Shown: positions 6,120 to 64,000, counted from the first letter of the stretch. The stretch: 64,000 nt of DNA from Candidatus Binataceae bacterium (GCA_030038355.1 JASHPB010000044.1:66-64065), one strand, 5' to 3'. The notes: generated by a model not told the origin, from the letters alone. Made by a program: numbers and translations.

Positions 6120-6161
6120 TCCTCCCGCGACTTACACTAAAGCGTCGCAGGAACTTGAGCC

Positions 6162-7580: not shown

Positions 7581-7612
7581 CGGCTAGAAAGCATCCTTAA
7601 TCCGTTCGAGCT

Positions 7613-7858: not shown

Positions 7859-8166
7859 AATAAGTTATCGGCGCCGCCGCTTCGGATGGCGTTCCACGGC
7901 GCGCTCGCCGCGCCGCCCGAGTGGAACCGCCTCGACAAATCGGGCGATCGATGCCTAAAGCAGCGCCCGCATCCGTCCGCGGCGGGGTTTTATCTTAGCC
8001 AAGACGCCCCCCTGCTCGCGAGATGGCCAGGTCGAGCCACGAGAGGTATTCAATATCGCCGCCGCGCATCAGAGAAGAGCGGTTTGGCAGTGGCGCGTCG
8101 CTCCCCTGACACGCCGCGCGCGGGATGTTACCATCACGAGTTCGCACGGACGCGCGGCTTAAGAAC

Positions 8167-8463
8167 ATGGCGGAGAACAAGATTACCCTCGAGATGGTCA
8201 AACACGTTGCCCGGCTCGCGCACCTTCAACTGAGCGACGTCGAACAGGAGCGCCTGCGAGCAGACATGGACCAAATGCTCGGCTATGTTGACAAGCTCAA
8301 CGAGCTCGACACCTCGAAGGTGCCGCCCACCGCGCAAGTCGGCGAGGCCGGCACGCCCATGCGCCCCGACGAGGTCAGCAATCCGTCGGCGCAAGAGGCG
8401 ATGCTCGCGAATGCGCCCGCGGCTGAACGCGGCTACTTCAAGGTGCCAAAAATCATCGAATAG
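8167..8463 (+). CDS. gatC: Asp/Glu-tRNA(Asn/Gln) amidotransferase subunit C
   Basis: MAENKITLEMVKHVARLAHLQLSDVE is a GatC N-terminus, and the gene sits immediately upstream of gatA. Confidence 0.85.
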   Translation: MAENKITLEMVKHVARLAHLQLSDVEQERLRADMDQMLGYVDKLNELDTSKVPPTAQVGEAGTPMRPDEVSNPSAQEAMLANAPAAERGYFKVPKIIE

Positions 8464-8516
8464 GTACTAAGTAACTATTGGCTTAGTATTCGATTGAGTA
8501 TTGAAGCAGGACCACG

Positions 8517-15394: not shown

Positions 15395-15410
15395 TCCCTT
15401 GGGCGCAGTC

Positions 15411-16496: not shown

Positions 16497-16497
16497 T

Positions 16498-17604: not shown

Positions 17605-17610
17605 GTGAAG

Positions 17611-18609: not shown

Positions 18610-18625
18610 CGCCGATGGTGGATCT

Positions 18626-20497: not shown

Positions 20498-20531
20498 TTC
20501 ACCCGCCTTTCAGCCGGCGCTCGCCGCGCTT

Positions 20532-22040: not shown

Positions 22041-22849
22041 CAGGAACGCTCTTCACGCCGCGTGCACTCGACGCCGCCATCAACAAAAAGGACCTGTCCT
22101 GTCATCAAAGAGTTCTCCGGGCTGAGGCACCAGGCGATGATTGCGGCCATTTCATCCGGCCGTGCCGGATACTCCCCGCGCAGCGGAACCATCTGTCCCA
22201 TGGCCGACCTGGTGTCGGGATTCGAGAGGATATAGGCGGCCGCCGGCGTATCGATAAATCCCGGCGCGAGCACGTTCAGCGTGATGCCAGCGCCTGCCCA
22301 ATCGCCTGAGCCCGCCGCGCGGCGGCACCAGCAATTCAACGAATACTTGGCGTTGGCGTAGAGCGCCAATCCGACCTGCAAGCCTTGCTCCGGCGTCATC
22401 TTGTCGAGCGGCGCAATCTTCGAGGCGTATTTCCACGCGCCGTCGATCGCCGCCTCCTCGTCCATCTTGAGCATGGCACTGACCAGGCTCTCGTCGACGG
22501 GACTGAACGACGCTATCGATGAAACCGCGATCGCCCGCGGCGCAGGACTGGATTTGAGCAGCGGGCGCAAGCCTTCGAGCGTCGCGACCGCGCCGAAGAA
22601 GTTCAGTTGCAGACTGGTCTGCGGAGGGCCACCACCCGCGACCGCCGCGATGGCATCAATTCGACCACCGGAGAGTCGCGTCACGCCATCAACGAGCGCT
22701 TTGCGTCCTTCGTTCGTCGTGAGGTCGGCGACCACCTCAGCATCGCGGAGATCGGTGCCGATAACGCGCCCGCCCCGCTCCCGAAGCCATCGCGCGGTTG
22801 CCGCGCCGATTCCGGACGCAGCGCCCGTGACTACGAACGTTCGATCCAT
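22037..22849 (-). CDS. SDR-family oxidoreductase
   Basis: Rossmann motif VTGAASGIG near the N-terminus, at classical SDR length. The start is taken at MMDRTF. Confidence 0.75.
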   Translation of the reverse strand: MDRTFVVTGAASGIGAATARWLRERGGRVIGTDLRDAEVVADLTTNEGRKALVDGVTRLSGGRIDAIAAVAGGGPPQTSLQLNFFGAVATLEGLRPLLKSSPAPRAIAVSSIASFSPVDESLVSAMLKMDEEAAIDGAWKYASKIAPLDKMTPEQGLQVGLALYANAKYSLNCWCRRAAGSGDWAGAGITLNVLAPGFIDTPAAAYILSNPDTRSAMGQMVPLRGEYPARPDEMAAIIAWCLSPENSLMTGQVLFVDGGVECTRREERSW

Positions 22850-22997
22850 CATTGATACTCCCAGCATCGGCGATTCGGGTAGGAGCAACCGCGATGCCAT
22901 CGATGAAGTCAGTTAAATGCAATAATTCCCATTCGCGCGAACGCAGTTACGGCGCTGCGCGCAGTGCCGCGCGTGCAGAGGTTCTCGATCTCGACGA

Positions 22998-24080
22998 TCA
23001 TCTTAATGCCGGCGTGACGATTCCAAGTTCGATCATCGTGCGGCCGGTTTCGAATAGTGTGTCATCTACCGGGCGTGACGTAAGGCCCAAGTCCTCGCGC
23101 GCATGATCGCAGTAGGCGCGCGGCGCGTCATACGGGCGGCCATACTTCGCGACTATCTCCTCGTATCCCTTCGGCGGGCCGCCGACGGCGACATGCGGGA
23201 AGAGGCGCGCGAGATGCTGCTGCAGCTCGGCGGCGTTCAGCTCGCCCGAGCGATCGGCCGCCGTCAATTGATAGCGCCCGCCGTTGGCGCAGTGGGCGCT
23301 TTCGATTATCAGCGCGTGGGCCTCGCCGACGTCGCGCACGTCCACGATATTCCATAGGTGCTGCCATCCGCGCCCGCACGGCTTTCCCATCAGCATCCGC
23401 CCGAGGAAGTATTGCCACGAGCCTGGCAGCTCATGCGCGCGAGAGAGCAGCGGCCCCAGTCCGACGCACGGACACACCGTGATCACGTCGAAGCGGCCGT
23501 GCTCCTCGGCGACGCGCCAAGCCAGCTGCTCGGTCGCGATCTTGCCCATCGCGTACGCGACGTCGCCGTTGGTCTCGATATTCTCCGGCGTCCAACTCGC
23601 ATCCCTGCCGCGATTATCCGACGCCCAGTCCTTCTCAGTGAAGATGTATCCGGGCGCCGCCGGATGCGCGATCGCCGAGAACGAACTCGTGTATACGACG
23701 CGCCGCACGCTGCCCGACTTCTTCACCGACTCGAGCACGTTCATGGTACCGCTCACCGCGCCATCGTAAATCTGCCGCGGCTTGTTCACGTTGGCATAGC
23801 CCATGGGAGTGCCGACGTGCAGCACGGCCGCGCATCCGGCGAAGACCTCGTCGTAGCTCCCGGGCTCGAGCAGGTTGCCGGTTCGAAGTTCGACGCGGCC
23901 CGGATACACGCCGCTATTCATCGCGAGCAGATGCGCAGTCTTCTCCGGCTTGCTCTGATCCGTTACGCACGCGCGCACCGTGTGCCCGCGCTTCACCAGC
24001 GCCAGCACGACGTGCGAGCCGATATGACCTGACGCTCCGGTGACAGCAACGGGACCATCGGACGGTTTAACCTGGGGCAT
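22998..24080 (-). CDS. NAD-dependent epimerase/dehydratase family protein (extended SDR; cinnamoyl-CoA-reductase or 3-beta-HSD-like)
   Basis: VAVTGASGHIGSHVV Rossmann motif and YAMGK active-site Y-x3-K, in 360 aa. Confidence 0.75.
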   Translation of the reverse strand: MPQVKPSDGPVAVTGASGHIGSHVVLALVKRGHTVRACVTDQSKPEKTAHLLAMNSGVYPGRVELRTGNLLEPGSYDEVFAGCAAVLHVGTPMGYANVNKPRQIYDGAVSGTMNVLESVKKSGSVRRVVYTSSFSAIAHPAAPGYIFTEKDWASDNRGRDASWTPENIETNGDVAYAMGKIATEQLAWRVAEEHGRFDVITVCPCVGLGPLLSRAHELPGSWQYFLGRMLMGKPCGRGWQHLWNIVDVRDVGEAHALIIESAHCANGGRYQLTAADRSGELNAAELQQHLARLFPHVAVGGPPKGYEEIVAKYGRPYDAPRAYCDHAREDLGLTSRPVDDTLFETGRTMIELGIVTPALR

Positions 24081-24102
24081 TTGGGCGTTCTCCGATTGCT
24101 AT

Positions 24103-25770
24103 TTATCGACCGTGGCGGAGCACCTGGCCCGCGTGGACCCCGGTATGGCGGCCGTCGCGCAGGTTGACCTTGCCGTTGACGATGGTCGCCTTGTAGCCGA
24201 CCGAGCGCTGGATAAATCGCGGCGCGCCGCCCGGAAAATCATTGACCAGCTCCGGCTGCCGCTCGGCGACCTGGTCCGCGTCGAACACGTTGACATCGGC
24301 GCGCATCCCGGGTTTAAGCGTCCCGCGATCCTTGAGGCCGATGACGCGCGCCGGTCCAGAGGTCAGGCGACGGATCGCCTCGGCCATCGAGTAGAGCCCG
24401 GTCTCGCGCACCCAGTACGACAGGACGAAGCTCGGCCATCCCGCGTCCATGATTTGCGAGACATGCGCGCCGGCGTCGCCGAGGCTCGGGAAGCAGTGCT
24501 CGCTCTTGAACAGGTCGCCGAGCGCCTTCAGGTTGCGATTGAACATCCTGAGGTTGAAGAGTGCCTTGCCGCCCGTCTCGCGCGTGAGGCGAAGGAAAGT
24601 ATCCGCCCAATGCTCGCCGGCCCTGGCCGCCTTTGCCTTCAGATTGTTGTCCGACGCCGCCGTGTAGTCGGGCGAGACGCCCGCGCCGAGGTAGAAGACA
24701 TGACTCATATCTATGAAGGTGGAATTCTCGCGTTTCGCCTCCTCGAGCAGTTTGGCGCTGAAATCGGAATCGTTGATCGCGGCGAGGCGCTCGCGAAAAC
24801 TACGCGCGCGCAGCTCATGCCACGTCTCGCCCGCGACCGGCAAGTTTGACTGCAGCCCGAAGATGAAACCCGAGCCGCGCACCTGCGTGATCGCGGTGAC
24901 GTCGCGATGGCTACAGAAGCGGTCGAGAAACTGGCGGCGCTGGATGCCCGAGTCGTCTTCCTCGCCCGCGCCGAAGCTGAACAGAATACGGCTCTTGCCC
25001 TCGTCCGCGATCGCCTTCATCACTTCGAGGTCGGCGCCGACGGCCTGCATCAGCGCGTCGCGTGGCGCGACCTGCTTCGCGATTTCGATAAGCTCGATCG
25101 GATCGGCAAACGTGCCGGGAATCGAACGACCGTCCGGCAGCTGGTGCGGCGCGTAGCGATTGGTCGAGAATCCGACCGCGCCGCGATCGATCGACTCGCC
25201 CACTATCTCGGCCATCCGGCGCCTCTCGGCTGCGGTCGCCTGCGCTTCGACCGCGCGCTCGCCCATCACGTAGAAGCGTACGGCGCAGTGCCCGACCATT
25301 CCGGCGACGTTGATTCCGGGGTTCAGCTTTTCGATCGCATCGAGGTAGCCGCCGTAACCCTCCCAGTTCCACGGGAGCCCGGTGAGGATTGCGTTGCGCG
25401 GGATATCCTCGACCGTCTCCATCATCGCGGCGAGCAGCTCGCGATCGGTGGGCCTGCAGGGCGCAAAGGTGACGCCGCAGTTGCCGAGCAGCGCGGTAGT
25501 CACGCCGTGCCAGCTCACGGGCGTGAGGTCGGGATCCCACCCGATTTGCGCGTCGAGATGGGTATGGACATCGACGAAGCCTGGCGTGACGATCAGGCCG
25601 CGCGCGTCGATTTCGTCGCCTCCGCCGCCTACCTCGTGGCCGATCGCCGTGATCCGGCCGTCATCGATCGCGAGGTCGGCGGCGAAAGGCTCGGCGCCCG
25701 TGCCGTCAACGATAGTGCCGCCCTTGATGACGATTTCATGCGACATTGTGCTCTCCGCTTCATGTGACAT
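24103..25770 (-). CDS. N-acyl-D-amino-acid deacylase (D-aminoacylase) family amidohydrolase
   Basis: 555 aa. The N-terminus IVIKGGTIVDGTG...GLIVTPGFVDVHTH has a metal-binding HxH, and the C-terminal region matches Amidohydro_3 / D-aminoacylase. The start region carries a 24-bp tandem duplication, so the alternative start is 25746. Confidence 0.75.
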   Translation of the reverse strand: MSHEAESTMSHEIVIKGGTIVDGTGAEPFAADLAIDDGRITAIGHEVGGGGDEIDARGLIVTPGFVDVHTHLDAQIGWDPDLTPVSWHGVTTALLGNCGVTFAPCRPTDRELLAAMMETVEDIPRNAILTGLPWNWEGYGGYLDAIEKLNPGINVAGMVGHCAVRFYVMGERAVEAQATAAERRRMAEIVGESIDRGAVGFSTNRYAPHQLPDGRSIPGTFADPIELIEIAKQVAPRDALMQAVGADLEVMKAIADEGKSRILFSFGAGEEDDSGIQRRQFLDRFCSHRDVTAITQVRGSGFIFGLQSNLPVAGETWHELRARSFRERLAAINDSDFSAKLLEEAKRENSTFIDMSHVFYLGAGVSPDYTAASDNNLKAKAARAGEHWADTFLRLTRETGGKALFNLRMFNRNLKALGDLFKSEHCFPSLGDAGAHVSQIMDAGWPSFVLSYWVRETGLYSMAEAIRRLTSGPARVIGLKDRGTLKPGMRADVNVFDADQVAERQPELVNDFPGGAPRFIQRSVGYKATIVNGKVNLRDGRHTGVHAGQVLRHGR

Positions 25771-25782
25771 TGTGCTCTCCGC
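25735..25782. repeat. Perfect-but-one 24-bp tandem duplication spanning the RBS, ATG and first codons of the amidohydrolase
   Basis: ttcatgcgacattgtgctctccgc / ttcatgtgacattgtgctctccgc. It yields MSHEAEST-MSHE with two in-frame ATGs, each preceded by GGAGAG. Confidence 0.85.
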
Positions 25783-25857
25783 GCTCCGATGCGCATAATT
25801 GGCGCCGCCGGCGAGAAACGAACCCGTTGAGGATTACCGCGCTCTTGCCGGCGCTTG

Positions 25858-25886
25858 TTAGAACGGATATTCTAAAATAGCCGTTC
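25858..25886. promoter_or_regulatory. Nested palindrome in the divergent promoter region; candidate TetR operator
   Basis: TTAGAA-cggata-TTCTAA overlaps GAACGG-(14)-CCGTTC, within the 141-bp intergenic region between the amidohydrolase (-) and the TetR gene (+). Confidence 0.3.
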
Positions 25887-25938
25887 GAGTCAAGCGTGGC
25901 GAAGAAGAATCTTGGAAGAGAAGTTTCAAAAGAAGCCG

Positions 25939-26607
25939 ATGGTCTCGCGGCCGTCTAGGCGCGACCTAGCGGCGGCGGCCGCCGGTGATGCGATCCTTGG
26001 AGTCCGCGGCTATCGCATCCGCGATCTTGCCAAGGCCGAGGAGCGCCGCCGCGCGATCCTGCTCGGCGCGGCGCGAGCGTTCGCGAAGGGCGGCTACGAC
26101 GCGACCAACATGGATCAGATCGCACGCGAATGCGGCCTCGCCAAGGGCCACATCTACCACTACTTCCGGAGCAAGGAAGATATCTTCACGGAAATCCGCT
26201 GCGAGGCCGTGACGCGGCTCCTAGAGCGCCTGACGGCGATTATCGACGAGACAGGAGACGACCCGGAGGCGGTCATCAGGCAAGCGATCGCGGCGGCGGT
26301 CGCGCGCGCCTTCAAGGAGGGCGAGCGCTACGAATCTGTCCTGCCAGACCCCGTGTCATTGAGCCCGGAGAATCGGCGGCGCATCCGCAGGCTCGGGCGC
26401 CGTTACGAGCAGCTGTTCTCGAATGTCATCGGCGATGGCATGGCCAAGGGCATTTTCGCCCACGGCGATCCGAAGCTCGTGACGTTCGTAGTTCTACGCG
26501 CCGCACTCACGGTGTCGAACTGGTACCGCGAAGGCGGCAAATGGAAACCCCGCTGGATCATCGACCAGGTGACCGAGCAGTTGGTGCGGAGCCTCCGCGC
26601 GCGGTAG
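25939..26607 (+). CDS. TetR/AcrR-family transcriptional regulator
   Basis: An N-terminal HTH (ILLGAARAFAKGGYDATNMDQIARECGLAKGHIYHYFRSKEDIF) is followed by a helical ligand-binding domain. The start could also be at 25912. Confidence 0.8.
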   Translation: MVSRPSRRDLAAAAAGDAILGVRGYRIRDLAKAEERRRAILLGAARAFAKGGYDATNMDQIARECGLAKGHIYHYFRSKEDIFTEIRCEAVTRLLERLTAIIDETGDDPEAVIRQAIAAAVARAFKEGERYESVLPDPVSLSPENRRRIRRLGRRYEQLFSNVIGDGMAKGIFAHGDPKLVTFVVLRAALTVSNWYREGGKWKPRWIIDQVTEQLVRSLRAR

Positions 26608-30594: not shown

Positions 30595-32121
30595 TCAGCG
30601 GCCACCGCCGCCTGGGGCGAGCGGATCTGCAGACACCGCGCCATGTTTTGCGGGCTTCGGCATGTGGATGTACAAATCCTCCGCCGCGGGACGCTTGTCG
30701 GTATGCATCTTCGGCGGTCGCATCGCGTACTTCACTTCCTTGAAGTGCTCGTTGTACTGGCGCTCGGGGTTGTACACGCGGTTGAATTTCCAGAGCATCT
30801 TGAGGAAGTTGGTCTGCCCCTTGAGCGCGAGCTTGCCCGCGATCGTCGCGACTTCCTTCAGTGCCGCAAACCCGAGATGCTTCTTGTTGAGCACGTCCTG
30901 CGTCTTCACGAGCTGCCGGTAAAACTCGTCGAGCGGCAGCGTCGTCGGCAGTACGGCGTGCTGGATATCGAAAAGCCGGTAATCGAGCGTCGTCAGCTTG
31001 CGCGATTCGGTAAACCAGAGCTCGGTTCCCGGATACGGCGTTGCGACCGTGAGATGCACAATCTCCGGGATGCTCATGGCCCATTCGCGGATAATCTCGA
31101 AGCGGCGCGCGTCCCACGACGGGTCGGCGATCAGGTTGATTGCGACGGTCAGGCCGATATCGCGCGCGACTTCGAGCGCCTTGTTATTCACGCCCATCGA
31201 CGAACGCTTGCGATGCAGCTTGAGCCCTTCCTCGTCGATCGCTTCGAGGCCGAGGAACATGTACTCGAGCCCGAGCTTGCGCCAATAGCGGAAGACCTCG
31301 GGGTTGCGGCATAGCACGTCGGAGCGAGTCTCGAGGTAGTAGCGCTTTTTGATGCGGCGCTTCTCGATCTCCTTGCCGATGGCGAAGCCGTGCTCGGGAT
31401 GGATGAACGCAACGTCGTCGACAATGAAGACTCCAGATTCCTTGATCGACGCCATGTCTTCTGCCGCAGCCTCGGCTGTCGATTTGCGATAGCTGCGGCC
31501 GTAGAAGGTCCACGCGCTGCAGAACGAACAGTCCCACGGGCATCCACGGGTGAATTCGATCGACGCGGCGGGATCGAGGACGCCGATGAAATACTTGTTG
31601 CGGCGGCGGCCCAGATCGCGCGCCGGGAAAAATTTGTCGAGGTCGTCGAGCATTATTGGCGCGGGCCCGACGCCACGCGTTGTTACCGCTCCCGGCACCT
31701 TCGCGATCGAATCGGTGCCGACCGCTTGCAGCAGCATCACCGCCGCCGTCTCGCCCTCGCCGCGCAGCACGCAGTCGATGGCGCCCTCGGCGTGCTCGAG
31801 CAACTCGTCCGCCACGAACGATCCGCTATGTCCACCGCTGAAGACGAAACATTGAGGATCAAGCCGCTTGAGCTCCTTGGCTAGGTCAATCACCTCGGGC
31901 GCGTTGGCGAGATAGTTGAGCGAGAAGCCGACGGCCTGCGGCTTGAAGCCTTTGAGCTCCGCGAAGAGGTCGGGATGCTTGAAAATCTGGAGATCGATCA
32001 TGCGGACATCGTGACCCGCGGCACGCACCGCCGCAGCGACGCGCTCCATCCCGAGCGGTTCCAGCCGCAGGTAGATTTCGCTGTACATGAGTGGGCTAGG
32101 ATGGACGAAGAGAACGCGCAT
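30595..32121 (-). CDS. Cobalamin-binding (class B) radical SAM protein, HpnP/HpnR/BchE-like architecture
   Basis: An N-terminal B12-binding Rossmann domain (RVLFVHPSP...GGHSGSF) is followed by a radical SAM core that includes FTRGCPWDCSFCSAW, and by a C-terminal DUF4070-like region. Confidence 0.8.
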   Translation of the reverse strand: MRVLFVHPSPLMYSEIYLRLEPLGMERVAAAVRAAGHDVRMIDLQIFKHPDLFAELKGFKPQAVGFSLNYLANAPEVIDLAKELKRLDPQCFVFSGGHSGSFVADELLEHAEGAIDCVLRGEGETAAVMLLQAVGTDSIAKVPGAVTTRGVGPAPIMLDDLDKFFPARDLGRRRNKYFIGVLDPAASIEFTRGCPWDCSFCSAWTFYGRSYRKSTAEAAAEDMASIKESGVFIVDDVAFIHPEHGFAIGKEIEKRRIKKRYYLETRSDVLCRNPEVFRYWRKLGLEYMFLGLEAIDEEGLKLHRKRSSMGVNNKALEVARDIGLTVAINLIADPSWDARRFEIIREWAMSIPEIVHLTVATPYPGTELWFTESRKLTTLDYRLFDIQHAVLPTTLPLDEFYRQLVKTQDVLNKKHLGFAALKEVATIAGKLALKGQTNFLKMLWKFNRVYNPERQYNEHFKEVKYAMRPPKMHTDKRPAAEDLYIHMPKPAKHGAVSADPLAPGGGGR

Positions 32122-37594: not shown

Positions 37595-39352
37595 TCAGCA
37601 AGCGCCGCACACGGTGCATCGAGTTACGTCGCAAGGCGGGCTCTGATGCTCGAAGTGCGCCTTCTTCCGCTCGGACTCGAGGAACCACTTCTCGACATGA
37701 TGGTCGATAAAGTCCCAAGGTAAAAGCTCGTCGCGCGCATACTCGCGCGTCACGAAGAACGTGGGATCAGGCAACTCGTTCGCCACACCCGAAGCGGTTT
37801 CGCGGCGGATCGCCTGCAACTCGTGCCAAATTTTCCCAGGCTCGTCGGCGCCAGCTGCCTGCAACCGCTCGAGAATTCGGGATACTCGGCGGTCGCCTCG
37901 CGAGACCATGGTTTGGAAGTACGCTTCGCGCGGAGATTCCGCATCCAGCTCGACCGGCCCCAGTTTGTTGAGAGCCGAGCGCAGCATTGCGATCTTTCGC
38001 TTCAAGTTTCGCGCGTCTTCCATCCGATCCCACTGAAACGGCGTCCACGGCTTGGGAACGAAGGGATTAAGCGAGACGGTAACGCTGGCAAGGCGTTGTC
38101 GGCGCTCGCGCGCGCCCGCGATTATCTTGCCGGTCAGGTCGGCGATCGCGAGCACGTCGTGATCGCGCTCCTCCGGCAGTCCAACCATAAAGTAAAGCTT
38201 TAGATTTGCAACGCCCTCGCCGAGCATCATGGCCGCCGCTTCGAGGATTTGTGCTTCGGTGAGATTCTTGTTGATGACCTTGCGCATCCGCTCGCTGCCC
38301 GCTTCGGGAGCGATCGTCACGCTATGCGCGCCGGTTTCGGCCAGCGCGGCCGCGAGTTTGGGCGAGATACAATCGGCTTTGAGGGAAGAGGGCGAGAGCC
38401 GGCCGCCGCGCTCCGCCACGTCGGTCGCGATTTCGGCGACTCCAGGCACACTCGCCATCTCGGCGCCGACGAGCCCAATGACTTTGCGCTCGGCTAGGCC
38501 GTGGCGCGCCTCGGCGATCAGATTTTCGGGTGAGCGATGGCGAATCGGCCGGTACATGAAGCCGGCCGCGCAAAAGCGGCATCCCCATTGGCATCCGCGG
38601 CTCGCCTCGACCAGGTACATGTCGCCGAAGACCGATTCCTCGGTGAGAATCAGCGACGCGGTCTTGAATTGATTGAGGTCGTCGATCAGCCGGCGATTGA
38701 CGCGCGGCTTGGCAGGACCGCGATAGGCGAATGAACGGAGCCGTCCGCGTTCATCGTATGCAGGTGTGTAATGCTCGGGTACATACGCGCCTTCGACCTG
38801 GGCGAGCCGGTCGAGCAAATCGGTGTCGCCCCGATGCTCCGAAAAGCGCGCGAGGAACTCGGGTGCCATTTCCTCGCCCTCGCCAATCAGGAAGAGGTCG
38901 ATAAGATCCGCGATCGGTTCGGGATTGAGGAACACCGCCGAGCCGCCCGCCACAATCAGCGGATATCCGCGGCCCTTGCGTGCGGCGCTGCGCGCGGGAA
39001 TTCCGGCCAGCTCGAGCACCTGCAGGAGATTCAGATAGTCGGTCTCGAACGAAATCGAAAACGCGATGACGTCGAAATCGGACAGCGGGCGCGCGCGCTC
39101 GAACGAGACCAAGCGCTCGCCCGTCTTGCGCATCTGCGCGCGCTCATCGGCGTCGGGCAGGAATGCGCGCTCGGCAGCGACGCGAGAATCTGACTCGAAG
39201 ATGTGGAACACGGCCTGGTAGCCGAGATTCGCCATTCCGAGCCGATAGATGTTTGGGTAAACGACGCAGACCGAGATGTCGCCGCCGGGGCTCCGCTCGT
39301 AGAGCAGCTTCTCGCGCGCGATTCGCTCCAGCGCGCGCTTACGGATAAACAT
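37595..39352 (-). CDS. Radical SAM protein with an N-terminal B12-binding-like domain (TIGR03960-like, uncharacterised family)
   Basis: ISVCVVYPNIYRLGMANLGYQAVF N-terminus, CQWGCRFCAAGF cluster motif, and 585 aa with a Cys-rich C-terminus CDVTRCTVCGAC. Confidence 0.8.
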   Translation of the reverse strand: MFIRKRALERIAREKLLYERSPGGDISVCVVYPNIYRLGMANLGYQAVFHIFESDSRVAAERAFLPDADERAQMRKTGERLVSFERARPLSDFDVIAFSISFETDYLNLLQVLELAGIPARSAARKGRGYPLIVAGGSAVFLNPEPIADLIDLFLIGEGEEMAPEFLARFSEHRGDTDLLDRLAQVEGAYVPEHYTPAYDERGRLRSFAYRGPAKPRVNRRLIDDLNQFKTASLILTEESVFGDMYLVEASRGCQWGCRFCAAGFMYRPIRHRSPENLIAEARHGLAERKVIGLVGAEMASVPGVAEIATDVAERGGRLSPSSLKADCISPKLAAALAETGAHSVTIAPEAGSERMRKVINKNLTEAQILEAAAMMLGEGVANLKLYFMVGLPEERDHDVLAIADLTGKIIAGARERRQRLASVTVSLNPFVPKPWTPFQWDRMEDARNLKRKIAMLRSALNKLGPVELDAESPREAYFQTMVSRGDRRVSRILERLQAAGADEPGKIWHELQAIRRETASGVANELPDPTFFVTREYARDELLPWDFIDHHVEKWFLESERKKAHFEHQSPPCDVTRCTVCGAC

Positions 39353-52836: not shown

Positions 52837-52873
52837 AGCGCACGTGAAGCCTGATGTCCGGTGCGAAGCGCGC

Positions 52874-53632
52874 TCACACCACGGAGATGAGCGATGGCTC
52901 CGGTTCCGCACGATAGACGCAGATGATCCCAAGCTTGACGCTGAGCGTCGTCGCGTTGGCGATCGCCGGATGGTAGCCGCGAATCCTTTCGATGCTGCTG
53001 CGCACGGCGCGTGACACATTGACGCGCGCACGATGAATATCGCTTGCCGAGCGCCGATCGCGTCCACCTAAACCTAGAGCCCGAGTCAGCTCGCGAGTCA
53101 GAAATTCCAGCTCCTGCCCGATTCGCGACGCGGCGCGCTCCTCGCCCGATTGCTTCGCATCCTCGAGTTCGGCGCTGAGTCCGCCGAGTCGCTGGCGACA
53201 TTCGGCCTTGGCACGCCAGTCCAGCAGCGGGCCCGCATCACTCGAACCAATGCGGCAAGGCTCCGCCGGTGCGAGCGCTTCGCCATCTGGAGCGGCTAGT
53301 CCGGCTCCGGTAATCGCGCCGGGCTGGCGCGACCGGCACCCTGCTTCGATCTCTGTCGCGTGAAATTCGCGGTCTGGATGCGTCGATAGTTGGACCAGGT
53401 AACCGAAGCCGCGGCTGTCACGGAGCCTGAAGACTTCGGCTTCGTGTTCCAGCGTCCAGTAGTCACCCTTGCCTTTGATGACGACGTGCCTCGCACGTCC
53501 ATTGGAGGGCATCTCGGAGAGCGCCTCGACCGAGACCGCCGTGCATTGCCGGCGAGCGCCTGGCATATTGCCCGACCCGAGCACTGCAGCGCGGAATGAC
53601 GGCCGATAGTAGCGTGAAACTCGATTCGACAC
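52874..53632 (-). CDS. Hypothetical protein with a regulator-like N-terminal domain
   Basis: A 252-aa ORF. Whether this is a real gene or the 3-prime fragment of a decayed larger gene is unresolved. Confidence 0.3.
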   Translation of the reverse strand: MSNRVSRYYRPSFRAAVLGSGNMPGARRQCTAVSVEALSEMPSNGRARHVVIKGKGDYWTLEHEAEVFRLRDSRGFGYLVQLSTHPDREFHATEIEAGCRSRQPGAITGAGLAAPDGEALAPAEPCRIGSSDAGPLLDWRAKAECRQRLGGLSAELEDAKQSGEERAASRIGQELEFLTRELTRALGLGGRDRRSASDIHRARVNVSRAVRSSIERIRGYHPAIANATTLSVKLGIICVYRAEPEPSLISVV

Positions 53633-54443
53633 TGACTCGACCTTGCAGGCCGCGCATCGACACGCATCGCGGCTTCGATCGCACCGACCAGCGCCGGGAT
53701 ATTGCCGACGAATGGAAAGTGCGACCTACCCTCGAGTGGCACCAGCCGGCTCTTGGGATAGCCGCCGCGAGCTCACGGCCTATCCGATAGCCGCATACAC
53801 AATCGTGCGCGCGAGGAATCACCGTCGTTGCCGCAGTAACCGGTGGCAGCATCGCGGCCACGTCGAGCTTGTAGAGCAACCCGTCGCAGACCCGGACCGC
53901 GTTGTCGGCGCTCGTCGACCGAACATCAACTGCGCGAGCGCCGGGCGGGTGGCACCGTCGGCGTCAGGCGCACCAAGGCTGGTGAAGAATCTCGTAGCGA
54001 TTGCCCAGTGATCGAGCATCAGTTCTCGAAACGCGTGTGGTAGAATCAAGCCTTTAGGCGCCTCCTGACCGCGGAGGCAAATGCGCAACAGGATAAGGTT
54101 CGCGCCCCGCTCCGGATGCTCGACCGCGTCGATCGCAACCGGGACCGGCGGTATCGAAGCCGAGCAACGAGAGACGATCGACCCCACGCGCGGCGCCGAG
54201 CTGATCGAGAATTCGCACTTCCGATCGGCGCGAAAACTCCTCGCGCCGCCAGTCCGGGACCTCAGTTCCGGCCGTTTCATTTTCACGATCTACTTGGATC
54301 GTCGACTGATCACTCCCTTGGAAGGCCTCGATCGGTAGATACCCGCGACTAACTTCCGGCAGCGAGCCCGGATCGGCGTAACCCTACGAACACCGATCCG
54401 GTCTTTGCGCGGGCGGCTTCAGCACCCCCCCCGAGCCGCCCTC

Positions 54444-56117
54444 TTATTTTTCAATCGATGGTGTGGACTCGCCGAGTGGTTCCGGATGCGACTTATTTGG
54501 CGACGGCGGGCTTTCCTTCCGCAGCACATACAGGTAGCGCGAGCCCAATCCGAATGGCCCCGGCCACTTGAACCGCTCGACCGCCTTGGTCCCGGGAATC
54601 GGGCCGCTCGCGATCGTGTACTGGTCAATTCCCGGCGACGTGATCATCGGGATCCCCGATTCCAGTTGCATGGTATCGATACCGTGCTTCGGGTAGCGAT
54701 AAAGATCGTTGCCGTTGATTGAATAACCAGCGTCGATTGCCCAGCGCGGAACACCCTCGCGCTCGAGCGTATCCCGAACTGCAGCTACCGCCGCGATGCC
54801 ACGCTGATAGGCGTACGCACCGCCAAGCGAGAGAGTCGCCATCAGCAGGGTAAGAGCTCCAGCAAGCGCAGGCGCGAATTTCCATTTCGGCCACGGCGCA
54901 ATCGCGAGCAGCACGCAGCCTGCGGGCACCAGCACGATGTAGTAGCGATCGTTGAAGAACCAGAGCGGTATGGTCGCCGCCCAATAGAGGATCGCCGCGA
55001 TCATAAGCGCCGCCGCCACGCGATCCAGCCGCGCGATCGCGTCGCGCGCTGCCATCAGGAGCCCCGCTGCACCGAGCGCTCCCAGAGCCATCCAGCAGTA
55101 TTGCCAGCCGTTGCTCCAATAGAAGCGGTTCGCCATCCCGCGCAGGATCATGACGTTGTCCCAGCCGCCGAAGCAGCTATATTCAGGCGAGACCGGCAGC
55201 CGCGTATCGATGCGGCTCAGCACGAACGTCGCCGCGAAGAGTCCCGCACCCCAGGCAACCACCGCCCGCCTCCGCGCGCCGAGCAACTGCATCAGCGCCA
55301 TCGGGCTAAGCACCGTGCCGAGGTAGAGCAACGGGCCGAGCACGCCGGCGCGCAGATAGTTGGTAAGCGGCGCGTCCATCAGATGCGAGAAGTGCCCGAG
55401 TGTAACCTGCAGATCCCACGGCCGCGGATTAATCACCGTCTCCCAGAGCCAGATCGTGACACACACCATCGAGGCGACCGCGAAAGGAAAGAGACGCCGC
55501 ACCATGCGCCAAAGGTCGCGCCGCACACCGTTGAACAACCCCGCGCTGAAGATCACTTCCGCGCCGACGAATCCCACGATCATCATCGCCGCGAACGGCC
55601 GCACCAGGAAGCAAAGCACCGAAACGATCGCCAAGAGCCAGAGCCATTCCGCTTCGAAGCGGCCCGAGGCTTGTGCGTAGGCAAGACATGCGCCGAGCAT
55701 CAGCATCAGGAAGGGAATCTCGGTCATGAAGGAGAAGCTGAGGAACGTGTAGCAGGGATTCCCGATGAGGCAGCCGGTCGCGATCACCCCGGCCGCAAGG
55801 CCAGCGCCCGAGCGGCGCGCGATACCATAGAGGAACATCGCGCCGAGCGCCGCCAATACGACGTCCGCGATCTCCAGGGACGCAGAACCGCCGCCAAAGA
55901 GTCGCGCCCATGCCGCGCCGTAGTAGACCTGCACAATCGGCATCGCCTGCGCGTAGCCGGCGAAGCGAACCTCTCCCGTCTGCAGGTAGCGGCGCACCGC
56001 CTCGCCGTAGAGCCAGCTATCCGCCACCGGCGCGTCGGCCAGTGGATGCAGCACCGCCCACGACAGGAGATACCAGGCCGCGATCGCGCCGCACACCACC
56101 CATCCCGCGCGCTTCAA
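54444..56117 (-). CDS. Polytopic membrane glycosyltransferase, ArnT/PMT-like (GT39/GT83-like) family
   Basis: 557 aa and ~12 TM with large periplasmic loops. The overall topology and N-terminal D-x-W-x-Y-like motif are consistent with lipid-linked-sugar transferases. Confidence 0.5.
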   Translation of the reverse strand: MKRAGWVVCGAIAAWYLLSWAVLHPLADAPVADSWLYGEAVRRYLQTGEVRFAGYAQAMPIVQVYYGAAWARLFGGGSASLEIADVVLAALGAMFLYGIARRSGAGLAAGVIATGCLIGNPCYTFLSFSFMTEIPFLMLMLGACLAYAQASGRFEAEWLWLLAIVSVLCFLVRPFAAMMIVGFVGAEVIFSAGLFNGVRRDLWRMVRRLFPFAVASMVCVTIWLWETVINPRPWDLQVTLGHFSHLMDAPLTNYLRAGVLGPLLYLGTVLSPMALMQLLGARRRAVVAWGAGLFAATFVLSRIDTRLPVSPEYSCFGGWDNVMILRGMANRFYWSNGWQYCWMALGALGAAGLLMAARDAIARLDRVAAALMIAAILYWAATIPLWFFNDRYYIVLVPAGCVLLAIAPWPKWKFAPALAGALTLLMATLSLGGAYAYQRGIAAVAAVRDTLEREGVPRWAIDAGYSINGNDLYRYPKHGIDTMQLESGIPMITSPGIDQYTIASGPIPGTKAVERFKWPGPFGLGSRYLYVLRKESPPSPNKSHPEPLGESTPSIEK

Positions 56118-56288
56118 TTCAGACCGCCTTGCTCCGATTTCCAGCTATCCTCTATACTTCGCGAGGCGCCGCCGCACGAGTATCGACGAACTGTTTAGCC
56201 GGTTTTCCGCGGCGCGCAAAGAGAGCCTCCCTCGACCGCGTGATTCTCGACACATCCAAGCACGCTCGCGATATTGAAAGACCATAAG

Positions 56289-57470
56289 ATGCGGCAAGTT
56301 GCCTTTCATCGTCCCGCAATCGGCCCTGAAGAGGAGCGCGAGGTGCTCGAAGCCCTGCGCTCCGGATGGATCACCACCGGGCCCAAGGCCAAGCGCTTCG
56401 AGCAGGAATTCGCCGCCTATGTCGGCGCGAAGCATGCCCTTGCGCTCGCGCACTGCACAGGCGCGCTCCATCTCGCGCTCTGGTCACTCGGCATCGGCCA
56501 GGGCGACGAGGTTATCACCACACCGTTCACCTTCACCGCGACCGCCGAGGTGATGGGTTATCTGGGCGCGCGGCCGGTTTTCGTGGACGTCGATCCCGGC
56601 ACTTTCAATCTCAATCCCGCGCGCGTCGAGGAGGAGCTCGAGAGCGGCCGCCATAAGCGGGTGCGCGCGCTGCTGCCGGTCCATTTCGCGGGCCAGGTTT
56701 GCGATATGGATCGGCTGCTCAAGATCGTGCGCGACTACGATTTGAAAATCGTCGAAGACGCGGCCCACGCTGTCAGCGCCGCACGTCATATGGAGGGCCG
56801 CGGCATGGCCCAGGTCGGCACGATCGGCGACCTCACCTGCTTCAGTTTTTATGCGACCAAGAACTTCACCACTGCCGAGGGCGGGATGATCACGACCGCC
56901 GACGACGCGCTCGCCGACAAGATCGCCGTCGCGAGCCTGCATGGCATGAACAAGGACGCGTGGAAGCGCTACGACAAGAGCGGCTCGTGGTACTACGAAA
57001 TCCATGACATGGGTTTCAAGTACAACCTGTCCGACGTGCACGCGGCGATCGGCCTCGCGCAACTGAAGCGGGCTGAGGACTTCAAACGCCGCCGCGCCGA
57101 GATCGCGCGCCGCTACGGCGAAGCGCTTCGCTCCGACGATGCACTCCAACCGCCGTACGTCGAGCCGGGCGTCGAGCACGCGTGGCACCTCTACGTGATG
57201 CGCCTGCGTCCCGAGAAGCTGCGCATCGGGCGCAACCAGTTCGTCGAGACGCTCCGCGAGCGCGGCGTCGGATGCTCAGTTCACTGCATCCCATTACATA
57301 CGATGCATTACTACCAGCAGATGTATGGCTATCGGACTGGCGATTTTCCGGTCGCAGAAGATATATACAGTCGCTGTTTTTCATTACCCATTTACTATTC
57401 GATGTCCGATGAGGACGTGGACTACGTAATCGACACAGTATTGAAGATCGCGCGCGAAAACCGCCGCTGA
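56289..57470 (+). CDS. DegT/DnrJ/EryC1/StrS-family PLP aminotransferase, ArnB-like
   Basis: [50 protein letters not shown]; the conserved lysine region is [15 protein letters not shown]. Confidence 0.8.
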
Positions 57471-57499
57471 GGATTGATACTCGGCCGAGGAGGAACGAA

Positions 57500-58441
57500 G
57501 TGCGTGCACTGGTAACCGGAGGCGCTGGATTTCTGGGTTCGCATCTATGCGAGCGGCTGCTGAAGGACGGCCACGAGGTAATCTGCCTGGATAACTTCTT
57601 CAGCGGCAAGCGCCTGAACGTCAAGCATCTCGTGCCGCATCCCAATTTCGAACTGATCCGCCATGACGTGGTCGAGCCGATCCTGCTCGAAGTTGACCGC
57701 ATCTTTCATCTCGCCTGTCCCGCTTCCCCCGTTCACTACCAGTACAACCCGGTCAAGACGATAAAAACCAGCGTGATGGGCACGATCAACATGCTCGGCC
57801 TCGCCAAGCGCGTCCGCGCTCGAATTCTGCTCACCTCGACCAGTGAGGTTTACGGCGATCCCGAGGAGCATCCGCAGACCGAATCGTACTGGGGACACGT
57901 CAATCCGATCGGCGTGCGCTCATGCTACGACGAAGGCAAGCGCGTTGCCGAGTGCCTGATGATGGATTATCACCGGCAGAACAACGTCGATATTCGCATC
58001 GTGCGCATCTTCAACACCTACGGCCCGCGGATGGCGATCAACGACGGGCGCGTTGTCTCAAACTTCTGCGTCGCGGCGCTCCGCGGTGAGGACCTCGAGA
58101 TCTTCGGCGACGGCGCGCAGACCCGCTCGTTCGCCTATGTTGACGACATCATCGACGCCCTGGTGCGCATGATGAATCAGGAGAAGCACAGCGGACCCGT
58201 CAATATCGGCAACCCGGACGAGTTCACGATCAAGGAGCTGGCGAAGATGGCGATCGATCTGACGCGCAGTTCCTCGAAGGTTGTCATCAAGCCCGCCCGC
58301 CCCGACGATCCGGTGCGACGCCGGCCGAACATCGAACTCGCGAAGAAGGTTCTCGGATGGCAACCGACGACGCCGCTGACGGTCGGCCTTAAAAGATCGC
58401 TCGATCACTTCCGCGACCAGTTAGGGATCAAAGAAGCGTGA
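57500..58441 (+). CDS. UDP-glucuronate decarboxylase (UDP-xylose synthase, UXS/ArnA-C-terminal-like)
   Basis: GTG start with upstream [24 protein letters not shown]...[15 protein letters not shown]...YDEGKR is characteristic of UXS. Confidence 0.85.
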
Positions 58442-59211
58442 CCACGGCGCTTATCACCGGCGCCTCCAGCGGCCTCGGCGAGGAATTCGCATACCAGCTC
58501 GCGCGCGAGCGCTACGACCTGGCGCTCGTCGCACGCCGCAGGGATCGGCTCGAGCAGGTCGCTACCAAAGCACGCCAGCTCGGCGCGGCCAACGTCTCGA
58601 TTTTCGCGAGCGATCTGTCCGCTCGCGGCGCCGCCGCTGCGCTGCATTCCGAGGTGACAAAGGCCGGCCTTGAAATCGGCTACCTCGTAAACAACGCCGG
58701 ATTCGGCACGCGCGGCGCATTCGCCGAGTTGCCGATCGACCGCGAGCTCGAGGAGATCAACCTGAACGTCAGCGCACTCGTCACGCTGACGAGGCTCTTC
58801 GTGCCCGCGATGGTCGCGCGGAAAAGCGGCACGATTATCAACGTCGCATCGACCGCCGCGTTCCAGGCCGTGCCCTGGATGGCGACCTACGCCGCCACCA
58901 AGGCCTTCGTATTGAGCTTCTCCGAAGCGCTCGCGCGCGAGTTGAAGGACACGGGAGTGACTGTGCTCGCGCTTTGTCCGGGACCTACGCGCACCGAATT
59001 CCAGTCGGTCGCCGATACCGACAGCGCCAGCATGCCGAATTTCGCTTATATGGACGCGGCGACCGTCGTCGCCCAGGGCATCGAATCCGCGCGCCGCAAG
59101 AAGGCAGTCCGGATCAATGGCATCGCAAATTATCTGATGGCGCAATCGACGCGCCTTGCGCCGCGCGCTCTCGCCGCAATGATCGCGGGCGCAATGTTTC
59201 GCAAAGAGTGA
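58438..59211 (+). CDS. SDR-family oxidoreductase
   Basis: ITGASSGLG Rossmann motif and YAATKAF catalytic Y-x3-K. Overlaps the UXS stop (GTGA). Confidence 0.8.
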
Positions 59212-59299: not shown

Positions 59300-59629
59300 A
59301 TGTGTAAGCTTGCTTCAACAGTGGCAGCTGTCACGCTTATCGCCGGCGCCTCGATACTCACGGGATGCGCTATCAAGCCGCCTCCGCTGCCTCCAGAGCC
59401 TCCGCCCGCAATCGTGCCGCAAGCCACGCTCATTGGACCGGAGGAACAGTCCAAACCTGACGAATGGAATCTATTCCCTGATCCCACCACCGGCGAAGTC
59501 GGCGTTTATCACGAGGGCAACTACGTCGGCTCTGTAACCGGCAACGAGCCCGAATCAGAAGACCCGCCGCTGCCGCATCCGACTCAAGCCGACAAGAACC
59601 GGGAACAAAACCAGAACGCTACTCCTTGA
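59300..59629 (+). CDS. Small hypothetical lipoprotein, Pro-rich
   Basis: Lipobox ILTGC|A followed by PPPLPPEPPPA. The start is at the internal MCKLAS of the listed ORF. Confidence 0.45.
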   Translation: MCKLASTVAAVTLIAGASILTGCAIKPPPLPPEPPPAIVPQATLIGPEEQSKPDEWNLFPDPTTGEVGVYHEGNYVGSVTGNEPESEDPPLPHPTQADKNREQNQNATP

Positions 59630-61858: not shown

Positions 61859-63124
61859 GTGTCGTCCGCGCTCGCAATCCTCGGCGGCAAGCCGCTTCGC
61901 AATCGGCCCTTCCCCCGCTGGCCCGTTTTCGACGAGTGCGAGCGCCTGCAAGTGCTCGATGTGCTCGAGTCCGCCAACTGGGGCGGCTTCCCTTCGCCCA
62001 ACCGCAAGGCTCGTGAACTTGCCGAAACGTTCGCCGCCTACCAGGGCGCCCGCTTCGCGATTCCGACTACATCCGGCACGACGGCTCTGGAAGCGGCGCT
62101 GAAGTCGCTCGGCATCGGACCCGGTGACGAGGTGATCGTGCCCGCGATCACGTTTGCCGCGACAGCCTACGCCCCTGTCGCTTGTCTCGCTCGTCCGCTG
62201 TTCGCCAACGTCCTCGCCGACAACGCCTGTATCGATCCTGCTTCGGTGCGGAAGCTGATCACGCGCCGCACCAAAGCGATCATCCCCGTTCACTACGGCG
62301 CCACGCTCGCCGATCTCGACGCGCTCAGCGAAATCTCGCGCGCGCATTCGATTCCGATCGTCGAAGACTGCGCGCACGTCCCGGGCGCTGCATGGCGCGA
62401 GCGCGGCGCGGGCGCGTGGGGCGCGCTCGGATGCTTCAGCTTTCAAACCACCAAGCCGATGACCGCCGGTGAAGGCGGCATGATCACGACCGACGAGCCG
62501 GAGCTCGAACAGCGCTGCCAATCGCTCATCAACTGCGGGCGACGGCAGCCCGGCGATGACTTCGAGGGTCCCGTGCTGGGCGCCAACTATCGGATGACGG
62601 AATGGCAGTGCGCCGTGCTGCTCGCGCAGCTCGATCGTCTACCGCAGCAGATCGAAAGGAAGAGCAGGCATGCGGCGCGCCTCCGCGCGGGCCTCGATTC
62701 GATTCCCGGGCTTCGCGCAGTCGCGCGCGATCCGCGCGTCACGCGCGAAGTAATTTACGCGTTCATCTTCATGGTCGATGAAGCGGCGCTCGGCGTATCG
62801 CGCAACCGCTTCGTGCGTGCGCTCCGCGCCGAAGGAATCCCGGCGGGAGTCGGCAACGAACCGGTGTATCGCTCGGCGCTCTTCCCGCGCGCATCCGCAG
62901 CGTATCGCATCGCCTGCGAGATGGCCGGAGCAAGACCCGACGAGCCGATCGATTGTCCCGTCGCCGAGCACCTATTCGAACATGCGATGGTCGCGATACC
63001 GCACGAGTGCCTGCTCGGCGACGAGCGCGACGTTGACGATATCGTCGCGGCGGCGGAGAAAGTCGCGCTCGGCGCGGCCATGTTGAAGAGCGCGGATCTC
63101 AAGCGCCAGGAGCCATCCTCCTGA
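61859..63124 (+). CDS. DegT/DnrJ/EryC1/StrS-family PLP aminotransferase (second copy, divergent from 56289-57470)
   Basis: GTG start. LAILGGKP..., the conserved FSFQTTKPMTAGEGG lysine region, and 421 aa. Confidence 0.75.
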   Translation: MSSALAILGGKPLRNRPFPRWPVFDECERLQVLDVLESANWGGFPSPNRKARELAETFAAYQGARFAIPTTSGTTALEAALKSLGIGPGDEVIVPAITFAATAYAPVACLARPLFANVLADNACIDPASVRKLITRRTKAIIPVHYGATLADLDALSEISRAHSIPIVEDCAHVPGAAWRERGAGAWGALGCFSFQTTKPMTAGEGGMITTDEPELEQRCQSLINCGRRQPGDDFEGPVLGANYRMTEWQCAVLLAQLDRLPQQIERKSRHAARLRAGLDSIPGLRAVARDPRVTREVIYAFIFMVDEAALGVSRNRFVRALRAEGIPAGVGNEPVYRSALFPRASAAYRIACEMAGARPDEPIDCPVAEHLFEHAMVAIPHECLLGDERDVDDIVAAAEKVALGAAMLKSADLKRQEPSS

Positions 63125-64000
63125 TGTCTCATCTTCAGGCAGGCGCCGCACGCGTGAAACTCGAGCCGCCGCTCGGCATCGCGATGATCGGCTATGGACG
63201 CCGGGCCGGACGCGCGTCGGGCGTGCACGACGATCTCGCCGCGCAGGCAATCGTAATCTCGGATGGAACGACGCGCGCCGCCATAGTCAGCGTCGACCTA
63301 CTCGCGATCGGCGCGCGGGTCGCCGATCAAATCCGCGACGCGATCGCCACGGCGACGGGAATTCCTGCTGCTGCCATGATGGTCTGTGCGACGCACACGC
63401 ATTCGGGCCCGATCTTCAATATCTTCGCGACGCCGAAGCGAGACGCCAAAGCAGGCGACGATCGCGACTTGAATTGGGAGCGCGCGCTGCCGGAAAACAT
63501 CGCGCGCGCTGCCATCGAAGCGAACAATCGGCTCGAGCCCATCACGATGCGGGTCGGACGCGGCCATTTCACGCTCGGCACGAATCGCAGGCTCCGCCGC
63601 GCCGACGGCTCGATTCAGCTCGCCGCCAACTATGCGGGAGTGGCGGAGTCCGAGCTGCTCGCACTTGGTTTTTACTCCGCGAGTGGACGCGCGCTCGCGT
63701 TCGTCTTCAGCTATCCCTGTCACGGCGTGGTGCTGTGCGAGGACAACTTGCTCTATTCGCGTGACTGGCCGGGATTCGCGCTCGACGAGATCGAATCGAG
63801 CGCCGCGGGCGACGGCGCGATCGCAATTTTTCTCCAGGGCGCGACCGGCAATATCGATCCGCGAAGCCGCGGCAGCTTCGAAGTGGCGAGCGAGCACGGC
63901 CGGGCCGCGGGCCGCGCCGTGCTGGAAGGACTTCGCGGGCAACCGGCCCTCGAGGACGAACCGCTAGCGGTGAGAAGGATTCCGCTCGCGCTCAAGCTGC
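63124..64000 (+). CDS. Neutral/alkaline ceramidase-like hydrolase, N-terminal part; the gene runs off the window
   Basis: MIGYGRRAGRASGVHDDLAAQAIVISDG and CATHTHSGP match the conserved ceramidase N-terminal domain motifs. There is no stop codon before position 64000. Confidence 0.55.
   Translation, partial: MSHLQAGAARVKLEPPLGIAMIGYGRRAGRASGVHDDLAAQAIVISDGTTRAAIVSVDLLAIGARVADQIRDAIATATGIPAAAMMVCATHTHSGPIFNIFATPKRDAKAGDDRDLNWERALPENIARAAIEANNRLEPITMRVGRGHFTLGTNRRLRRADGSIQLAANYAGVAESELLALGFYSASGRALAFVFSYPCHGVVLCEDNLLYSRDWPGFALDEIESSAAGDGAIAIFLQGATGNIDPRSRGSFEVASEHGRAAGRAVLEGLRGQPALEDEPLAVRRIPLALKL

Follow-up and report, generated by a model that had tools for sequence, protein, structure and literature searches.

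What does a membrane glycosyltransferase (GT) gene do that lies back to back with genes for sugar-nucleotide enzymes in an uncultured soil bacterium? The question is raised by positions 54444-59211 of a stretch of 64,000 nucleotides (GCA_030038355.1 JASHPB010000044.1:66-64065; 64 kb, hereafter the window) from Candidatus Binataceae bacterium, a metagenome-assembled genome of the class Binatia. A sequence-only reading had placed there an ArnT/PMT-like transferase (PMT, protein O-mannosyltransferase), an ArnB-like aminotransferase, a UDP-glucuronate decarboxylase and an "extra" short-chain dehydrogenase/reductase (SDR), and had likened the set to the Arn pathway of polymyxin resistance. All four open reading frames (ORFs) were found at these coordinates, the gene set being borne out by ORF reading of the window and by family-level Pfam matches, and the named close homologues of their proteins all belonged to Binatus or Binataceae. 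By its appearance the cluster serves to decorate the cell envelope, but it is not the Arn pathway known from polymyxin resistance. Judged by sequence, it would represent a conserved, class-wide and uncharacterised module, a finding that rests on synteny within one uncultured class and comes with no linked carrier-loading enzyme. The reading that we favour, at a probability of about 0.42, is a Binatia-specific module for glycosylation of the envelope with a pentose (xylose or a 4-amino-pentose), whose polyprenyl-phosphate donor synthase is encoded elsewhere.

Gene order around the glycosyltransferase in Binatia

A one-genome-per-species scan yielded 80 loci, all of which were compared with the proteins of the window. 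The GT gene stood head-to-head with the aminotransferase and UDP-xylose synthase (UXS, the decarboxylase) genes, or with UXS, in 53 of the 56 Binatia loci anchored on the GT, at GT identities as low as 41%, and the gap of 92-305 bp between the two transcription units was uninterrupted in all 53. Since the arrangement recurs in about 60 independent Binatia loci, it is not due to chance. Loci without the aminotransferase (L034, L044, L051, L055 and L057), which fall in at least three separate places on the GT protein tree, have UXS directly opposite the GT. The GT/UXS junction also survives in L055 and L057 despite the loss of YkuD and UvrD; in L057 the acyl-CoA dehydrogenase gene is gone as well and UXS still adjoins the GT, and a hydantoinase replaces the genes beyond UXS in L051 and L057.

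The SDR that had been called extra is no local oddity. Operons of aminotransferase, UXS and SDR were also present in L002, L003, L038, L042, L045, L047, L050 and L087-L091; the SDR occurs on several deep branches of the GT tree, the species-rich crown clade of Binatus having lost it, and its relatives at 65% identity or above form more than 120 clusters. Four of the five large-contig loci taken from four SDR clusters (L087, L089, L090, L091) have the GT divergent from aminotransferase-UXS-SDR, the fifth being the GT-less L088. This deep-branch spread, seen in the tree and in the SDR-anchored loci, speaks against the SDR as a rare add-on, which a count of 8/56 loci had suggested. Downstream, a small lipoprotein gene, which had not been part of the sequence-only reading, always lies on the same strand, directly 3' of the SDR or, where the SDR is missing, of UXS. 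It was detected by tblastn in 53 loci, is there in 52 of the 57 loci that have the aminotransferase, and is missing in 4 of the 5 UXS loci without an aminotransferase.

Seven Binatia intergenic regions, when aligned, share a TATA(G/C)-type box and the ribosome-binding site GGAG on the GT side of the divergent control region. The conserved element at 56118-56160 reads, on the minus (GT-sense) strand, AGTATAGAGGATAGCTGGAAATCGGAGCAAGG; its TAT and GGAGCAA parts are kept across the seven Binatia lineages and are probably the -10 box and the ribosome-binding site of the GT gene. On the operon side there is a weak sigma-70-like site, TCGACA-17-GATATT (56247-56275). A promoter scan of the region found 3 sites where 1.5 were expected, not a significant excess, a terminator scan was likewise not above background, and Rfam detected no RNA element in the region.

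The other end of the GT gene is a site of varying insertions: its 3' junction with the YkuD L,D-transpeptidase gene is empty in L002 and occupied by McrBC in L001 (11924-14880), by two TIR-pentapeptide genes in L044 (3082-5281) and by an NHL-repeat protein gene in L034 (9739-11148); in the window it spans ~1.6 kb (52840-54440) with ORFs of 252 and 155 aa that have no Pfam or NCBIfam match. In L090, from a Binataceae genome, a methyltransferase-GT2 fusion gene (497 aa, 483-1976 minus) follows the GT on its strand in place of YkuD/UvrD, and a group II intron reverse transcriptase gene (RVT_1+GIIM, 7553-8512 minus) lies between the lipoprotein and acyl-CoA dehydrogenase genes.

A proposed pentose pathway and the case for inherited gene order

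By homology, UXS would turn UDP-glucuronate into UDP-xylose via UDP-4-keto-pentose. In most lineages the aminotransferase would then make UDP-4-amino-4-deoxy-pentose from UDP-4-keto-pentose, the keto sugar either leaking from UXS or arising from UDP-xylose that is re-oxidised by the coupled SDR, a putative role. A GT2 enzyme encoded elsewhere would load the pentose or amino-pentose onto polyprenyl phosphate, the product would be flipped across the membrane, and the GT, with its GT-C fold and a predicted catalytic Asp33 in loop 1, would move the sugar to a periplasm-facing acceptor, for which lipid A, the core of lipopolysaccharide (LPS) and proteins, for instance the Pro-rich lipoprotein of the operon, are candidates. 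Lineages with only the GT and UXS would use plain xylose as the sugar.

We favoured the pentose module because the GT and UXS are head-to-head in 53/56 loci at a junction that outlasts the wider synteny; because loss of the aminotransferase leaves UXS directly beside the GT; because the aminotransferase falls in the UDP-4-keto-sugar clade and UXS is the sole producer of a 4-keto sugar within the operon; because the operon goes on to encode an exported lipoprotein that is conserved; and because the predicted GT-C fold with ArnT as its best match, the lipid-phosphate donors of such enzymes and a GT2+GtrA gene in L082 agree with the carrier step. GT-C enzymes take lipid-phosphate-linked sugar donors, and a polyprenyl-phosphate-linked donor for this GT is inferred from the modelled fold only. 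The stronger version, a new route in which a true UXS feeds an ArnB-like transaminase (the SDR possibly helping), a polyprenyl-phosphate-pentose carrier supplies a new GT-C subfamily and the Pro-rich lipoprotein serves as partner or acceptor, is decidedly doubtful; if true, it would be the first polyprenyl-phosphate-xylose or UXS-fed amino-pentose system. A literature search returned nothing on UXS with ArnT or undecaprenyl phosphate, on polyprenyl-phosphate-xylose or on 4-amino-4-deoxy-xylose, and the Binatota genome paper does not discuss LPS.

Several observations weigh against a pentose module. Polyprenyl-phosphate GT2, flippase and Ugd genes were found neither in the window nor within 8 kb in any Binatia locus. 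In the Arn pathway a formyltransferase and a deformylase pull the unfavourable transamination forward, and the window holds neither, as the sequence-only reading had noted. Canonical UXS normally retains NADH and the 4-keto intermediate (PMC3438964), and a UXS that loses this intermediate becomes an inactive NADH-bound enzyme (PMC12488480). The aminotransferase, by homology a UDP-4-keto-sugar 4-aminotransferase, does not single out one sugar. L043 and L054 carry the GT without UXS and without the aminotransferase, and the reverse is seen in L088 (a JGI soil contig of 370 kb; 3704-7777), where YkuD is followed after 57 bp by aminotransferase-UXS-SDR-lipoprotein and the GT is cleanly absent, making this genome a natural "deletion mutant" for the GT. 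The distant GT relatives outside Binatia have no UXS or aminotransferase nearby. Finally, the synteny of YkuD and UvrD is almost as persistent as that of UXS, and much of the GT-UXS linkage could thus be due to inherited gene order.

If gene order is simply frozen, the aminotransferase, UXS and, where present, the SDR would feed cytoplasmic glycosyltransferases for LPS or exopolysaccharide (EPS) elsewhere in the genome, and the GT would use another donor such as polyprenyl-phosphate-mannose or -glucose. This explanation, the main rival of the pentose module, is unlikely in our estimate, though it deserves serious weight. It accounts for YkuD, UvrD, FtsJ and acyl-CoA dehydrogenase, conserved neighbours with no plausible functional link, for the operon without a GT and the GTs without UXS, and for the lack of a linked donor-synthase gene and the GT relatives unlinked to UXS; moreover, the UXS genes of cultured bacteria (rhizobia, Azospirillum) lie in ordinary O-antigen or EPS clusters. 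It fits less well with a GT/UXS junction that is the most persistent of all, surviving in L055 and L057 without YkuD/UvrD, and that is never split, whereas the GT/YkuD junction repeatedly gains McrBC, TIR and NHL genes, nor does it lead one to expect that loss of the aminotransferase should again put UXS head-to-head with the GT.

If the linkage is functional, the pentose module would be a second evolutionary way to put a pentose or amino-pentose on the bacterial envelope, based on UXS instead of ArnA and on a GT-C subfamily of which no member is characterised. For a class of soil and peat bacteria that is uncultured but abundant worldwide, it would define a trait of surface chemistry, and it would pose the enzymological puzzle of how a canonical UXS, which normally hides its 4-keto intermediate, feeds a transaminase. 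If it is not, we would have an ordinary UDP-xylose operon beside an orphan glycosyltransferase.

The enzymes, the lipoprotein and the neighbouring genes

Features of the cluster in the window, with the evidence for each (positions counted from the first letter of the window)
Feature	Position	Strand	Length	Evidence
GT-C-fold polytopic glycosyltransferase	54444..56117	minus	557 aa	Pfam PMT_2, AlphaFold2, Foldseek
Divergent control region between GT and aminotransferase operon	56118..56288		171 bp	Alignment of 7 Binatia intergenic regions
PLP-dependent UDP-4-keto-sugar 4-aminotransferase (DegT/ArnB/PseC clade)	56289..57470	plus	393 aa	Pfam DegT_DnrJ_EryC1
UDP-glucuronate decarboxylase / UDP-xylose synthase (UXS)	57500..58441	plus	313 aa	Human UXS1 homology
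Classical SDR	58438..59211	plus	257 aa	Pfam adh_short
Small conserved lipoprotein	59300..59629	plus	109 aa	Fifth part, added here

In line with the UXS-type label of the sequence-only reading, homology marks the decarboxylase as a canonical UDP-xylose synthase and not an ArnA-type enzyme. Human UXS1 (4gll/2b69) matched over the full length at E = 1.1e-127 and 429 bits, against ~1e-25 and ~92 bits for ArnA, and identity to the rhizobial and Azospirillum UXS was 59-63%. The catalytic signature is complete (T114-S115-E116, Y143, K147, R274; in human UXS1 T118/S119/E120/Y147/K151/R277, PMC3438964), and the NCBIfam models for ArnA (110 bits vs a cut-off of 777) and for PRK11908, the bifunctional 4-keto-pentose/xylose synthase (107.9 bits vs 294), were far from reached. 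A GAGGAGG Shine-Dalgarno sequence precedes the start at 57500.

For the aminotransferase, the ORF spans 56274-57470 with a likely ATG at 56289, the Pfam match to DegT_DnrJ_EryC1 has E = 2e-123, and the Schiff-base lysine for pyridoxal phosphate (PLP) is K191 in FSFYATKN. Its best solved relatives are ArnB structures (E = 1.7e-78, ~43-45% identity), so far in line with the ArnB-like label that it had been given, but it scored 341 bits against the NCBIfam ArnB cut-off of 631 (PseC: 377 vs 423.5). Identity to a DegT enzyme of the Shigella sonnei O-antigen plasmid (pINV) was 44.8%, against 39% to Pantoea ArnB, and plasmid homologues at that distance sit in clusters with 4,6-dehydratases; by these comparisons it appears equally close to the 4-keto-6-deoxy-HexNAc aminotransferases and to ArnB. 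A plasmid search for adjoining UXS and aminotransferase homologues found none.

The TTG start of the GT is backed by the family consensus MRRAGW. The protein has ~13 hydrophobic segments, and its sole Pfam match is PMT_2 (PF13231; E = 1.7e-7, 32.1 bits vs a cut-off of 26.1). An AlphaFold2 model (pLDDT 72.9, pTM 0.80) has a GT-C fold and shows the architecture of ArnT, that is, an N-domain with multiple transmembrane segments, a loop-1 Asp and a C-terminal periplasmic domain. Foldseek ranked ArnT (5f15/5ezm) first (E = 2e-6, TM 0.41, 13% identity), followed by AglB, EmbA/B, Pmt4, STT3 and PglB, with Pmt1/2 also among the fold matches. At the level of sequence, no NCBIfam family was matched at E<=0.001, the ArnT model included, and phmmer and a family-profile hmmsearch against PDB gave no solved GT-C chain. 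Profile comparison assigned the protein to neither GT83 nor GT39, and on the strength of the model and these profiles it is filed only as an uncharacterised PMT_2 GT-C subfamily with ArnT-like architecture.

Within the GT family, the first periplasmic loop has the invariant residues D33 and Y37; FSFMT(D/E), R173 and W386-x3-D390-R391-Y392 are invariant as well, as is the motif IDAGY..NG of the C-terminal periplasmic domain. In ArnT, loop 1 carries the motifs RYA and YFEKP, whose Tyr and Lys are essential in the Burkholderia and Salmonella enzymes (PMC5377068). Loop 1 of this GT reads ADSWLYGE...GYAQAMP; in a by-eye alignment that is moderately secure, Tyr37 is retained, the Arg of RYA is replaced by Leu and the Lys position of YFEKP by Met59, and the wider family reads YPxAQ at the YFEKP position. 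The family is narrow: of 1.84e9 proteins, only 33 representatives reach E<1e-30. Binatia are also the source of the full-length relatives at 39-45% identity, and those at 23-33% come from other phyla (Acidobacteriota, Methylomirabilota, Saprospiraceae and others) and have heterogeneous neighbours. In 1 of 10 distant relatives (L082) a GT2+GtrA gene lies directly upstream, and a tblastn search with the GT2-GtrA protein next to it as query had no hit, either in the window or across 82 related loci. A 624-aa protein adjoining UXS in Methylobacterium, considered as a GT relative, proved unrelated to the GT.

Taken together, these data bear on the suggestion that the locus confers resistance to polymyxin and other cationic antimicrobial peptides, with UXS in place of ArnA, the ArnB-like enzyme making UDP-L-Ara4N and an ArnT orthologue transferring it to lipid A phosphates. 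ArnB and ArnT are indeed the best structural relatives of the aminotransferase and the GT, and the UXS and ArnA routes are the same up to UDP-4-keto-pentose (PMC3438964). In Pfam searches of essentially every sizeable ORF of the window, however, GT2/ArnC, an ArnD-type deacetylase, a formyltransferase, Ugd and an SMR-type flippase (ArnE/F) were all missing. A simple replacement of ArnA by this UXS would be mechanistically awkward, because a canonical UXS normally holds on to its 4-keto intermediate, though a leaky enzyme would be a possible way around this. The case for UXS as a substitute for ArnA in an Arn-like pathway of lipid A modification is therefore weak: the decarboxylase is of the UXS type, the aminotransferase is below the ArnB cut-off and dispensable in at least three lineages, the SDR is widespread, the Arn genes are missing from the window, and the GT, with YAQAMP in place of YFEKP and the essential lysine replaced, cannot be assigned to GT83 or GT39. 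A role in envelope glycans stays plausible, and membership of the Arn pathway is very unlikely.

The overlap between UXS and the SDR that had been described is real: the GTG start of the SDR lies over the TGA stop of UXS (GTGA, 58438-58441), and the two genes are translationally coupled. The SDR matches adh_short in Pfam (E = 1e-47), its PDB matches are nondescript, the best NCBIfam model is mycolate reductase (194 bits vs a cut-off of 380, full length), and it has a hydrophobic C-terminal helix. In the lipoprotein, a signal peptide with the lipobox ILTG|C is followed by a linker rich in Pro, Ser and Thr and by the invariant core WNLFPDPTTGxVxVYHxGxYVGxVTGNE..EDPPxPH. Pfam had no match for it, only 20 homologues were detectable, the sole named sources being Binataceae, and the predicted model is mostly disordered with one beta-hairpin (pTM 0.28).

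Such a protein invites the thought that the PMT-like GT moves the pentose to Ser/Thr residues of Pro-rich exported lipoproteins, the small lipoprotein being a dedicated acceptor or partner. Actinobacterial PMTs glycosylate Pro/Ser/Thr-rich regions, and the sole Pfam match of the GT, its fold matches to Pmt4 and Pmt1/2 and the conserved, largely disordered lipoprotein with its invariant DPTTG agree with this; nevertheless we give protein O-glycosylation little credence, as the GT matches none of the domains PF02366, MIR and PMT_4TMC, carries DS instead of the PMT motif DE in loop 1 and has the PMT structures below ArnT and AglB in its Foldseek ranking, as the lipoprotein tracks the aminotransferase and UXS rather than the GT (present in the GT-less L088 and absent from L051, L055 and L057, which have GT and UXS), and as the idea is a purely inferential one.

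Elsewhere in the window, a second, divergent DegT-family aminotransferase (421 aa) scores far below the cut-off of every NCBIfam model; its gene (61859-63124 plus) is translationally coupled by a 1-nt TGATG overlap to a neutral/alkaline ceramidase-like gene (63124-64000 plus); this unusual pair is kept in most Binatus loci, and a rhodanese gene comes next in relatives. At 13517-25770 minus, genes for an ABC-2 exporter of two permeases and an ATPase lie between those of two paralogous FAD_binding_4+BBE oxidases (625 and 623 aa), followed by an MFS_2 transporter, an SDR, an NmrA/epimerase-like protein and an amidohydrolase, with a divergent TetR regulator at 25912-26607 plus; the genes of 13517-26607 look like an uncharacterised oxidation/export cluster with no relation to the GT/UXS cluster. 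Two genes of B12-binding/radical-SAM families (30595-32121 minus and 37595-39352 minus) lie near genes for a family III CoA-transferase, an aldo-keto reductase and MFS transporters.

Comparison with known systems

The Arn (Pmr) system, ArnB/A/C/D/T/E/F of Salmonella, E. coli, Burkholderia and Cupriavidus, has in common with the Binatia cluster the oxidative decarboxylation of UDP-glucuronate to UDP-4-keto-pentose, a DegT-family 4-aminotransferase and a polytopic GT-C enzyme. It differs in that the Binatia decarboxylase is, by homology, a canonical UXS (63% identity to human UXS1) and not ArnA, in that the formyltransferase, ArnC, ArnD, ArnE/F and Ugd are absent from the window and the YFEKP lysine from the GT, and in that the aminotransferase is optional across lineages and the operon includes a classical SDR and a small lipoprotein.

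ArnT-like GT-C enzymes that glycosylate lipid A or core and are fed by a separate GT2 are known from Rhizobium (RgtA-D/RgtE, GalA), Francisella (FlmK/FlmF2, GalN) and Bordetella (LgmA-C, GlcN). In these systems a nucleotide sugar is converted into a polyprenyl-phosphate-sugar and transferred by a periplasmic GT-C step without ArnA, the GT2 is genetically linked and the sugars are hexose-derived. The carrier logic that we propose for Binatia would be the same, whereas no GT2 is linked to the Binatia locus and the proposed sugar is a pentose.

With the PMTs of family GT39 (Mycobacterium Rv1002c; yeast Pmt1/2/4) the Binatia GT has in common the predicted GT-C fold, the PMT_2 match and a possible Pro-rich lipoprotein acceptor; it differs in lacking PF02366, MIR and PMT_4TMC, in a fold match that is weaker than that to ArnT, and in its association with a UDP-xylose pathway and not with mannose. 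Pairs of a dehydrogenase and a DegT aminotransferase, GnnA/GnnB and WbpB/WbpE, would follow the same logic if the Binatia SDR re-oxidises UDP-xylose at C4 for the aminotransferase. The dehydrogenases of these pairs belong to the Gfo/Idh/MocA family and not to the classical SDRs, and the Binatus crown clade, unlike them, retains its aminotransferase without the SDR.

Finally, the Binatia decarboxylase resembles the UDP-xylose synthases of human (UXS1), Sinorhizobium, Rhizobium and Azospirillum over its full length, at 59-63% identity and with the complete catalytic signature. The known bacterial UXS genes have Leloir glycosyltransferases or GalE-like epimerases for company in clusters for O-antigen or EPS, whereas that of Binatia stands head-to-head with the gene of a GT-C enzyme and downstream of that of an ArnB-like aminotransferase.

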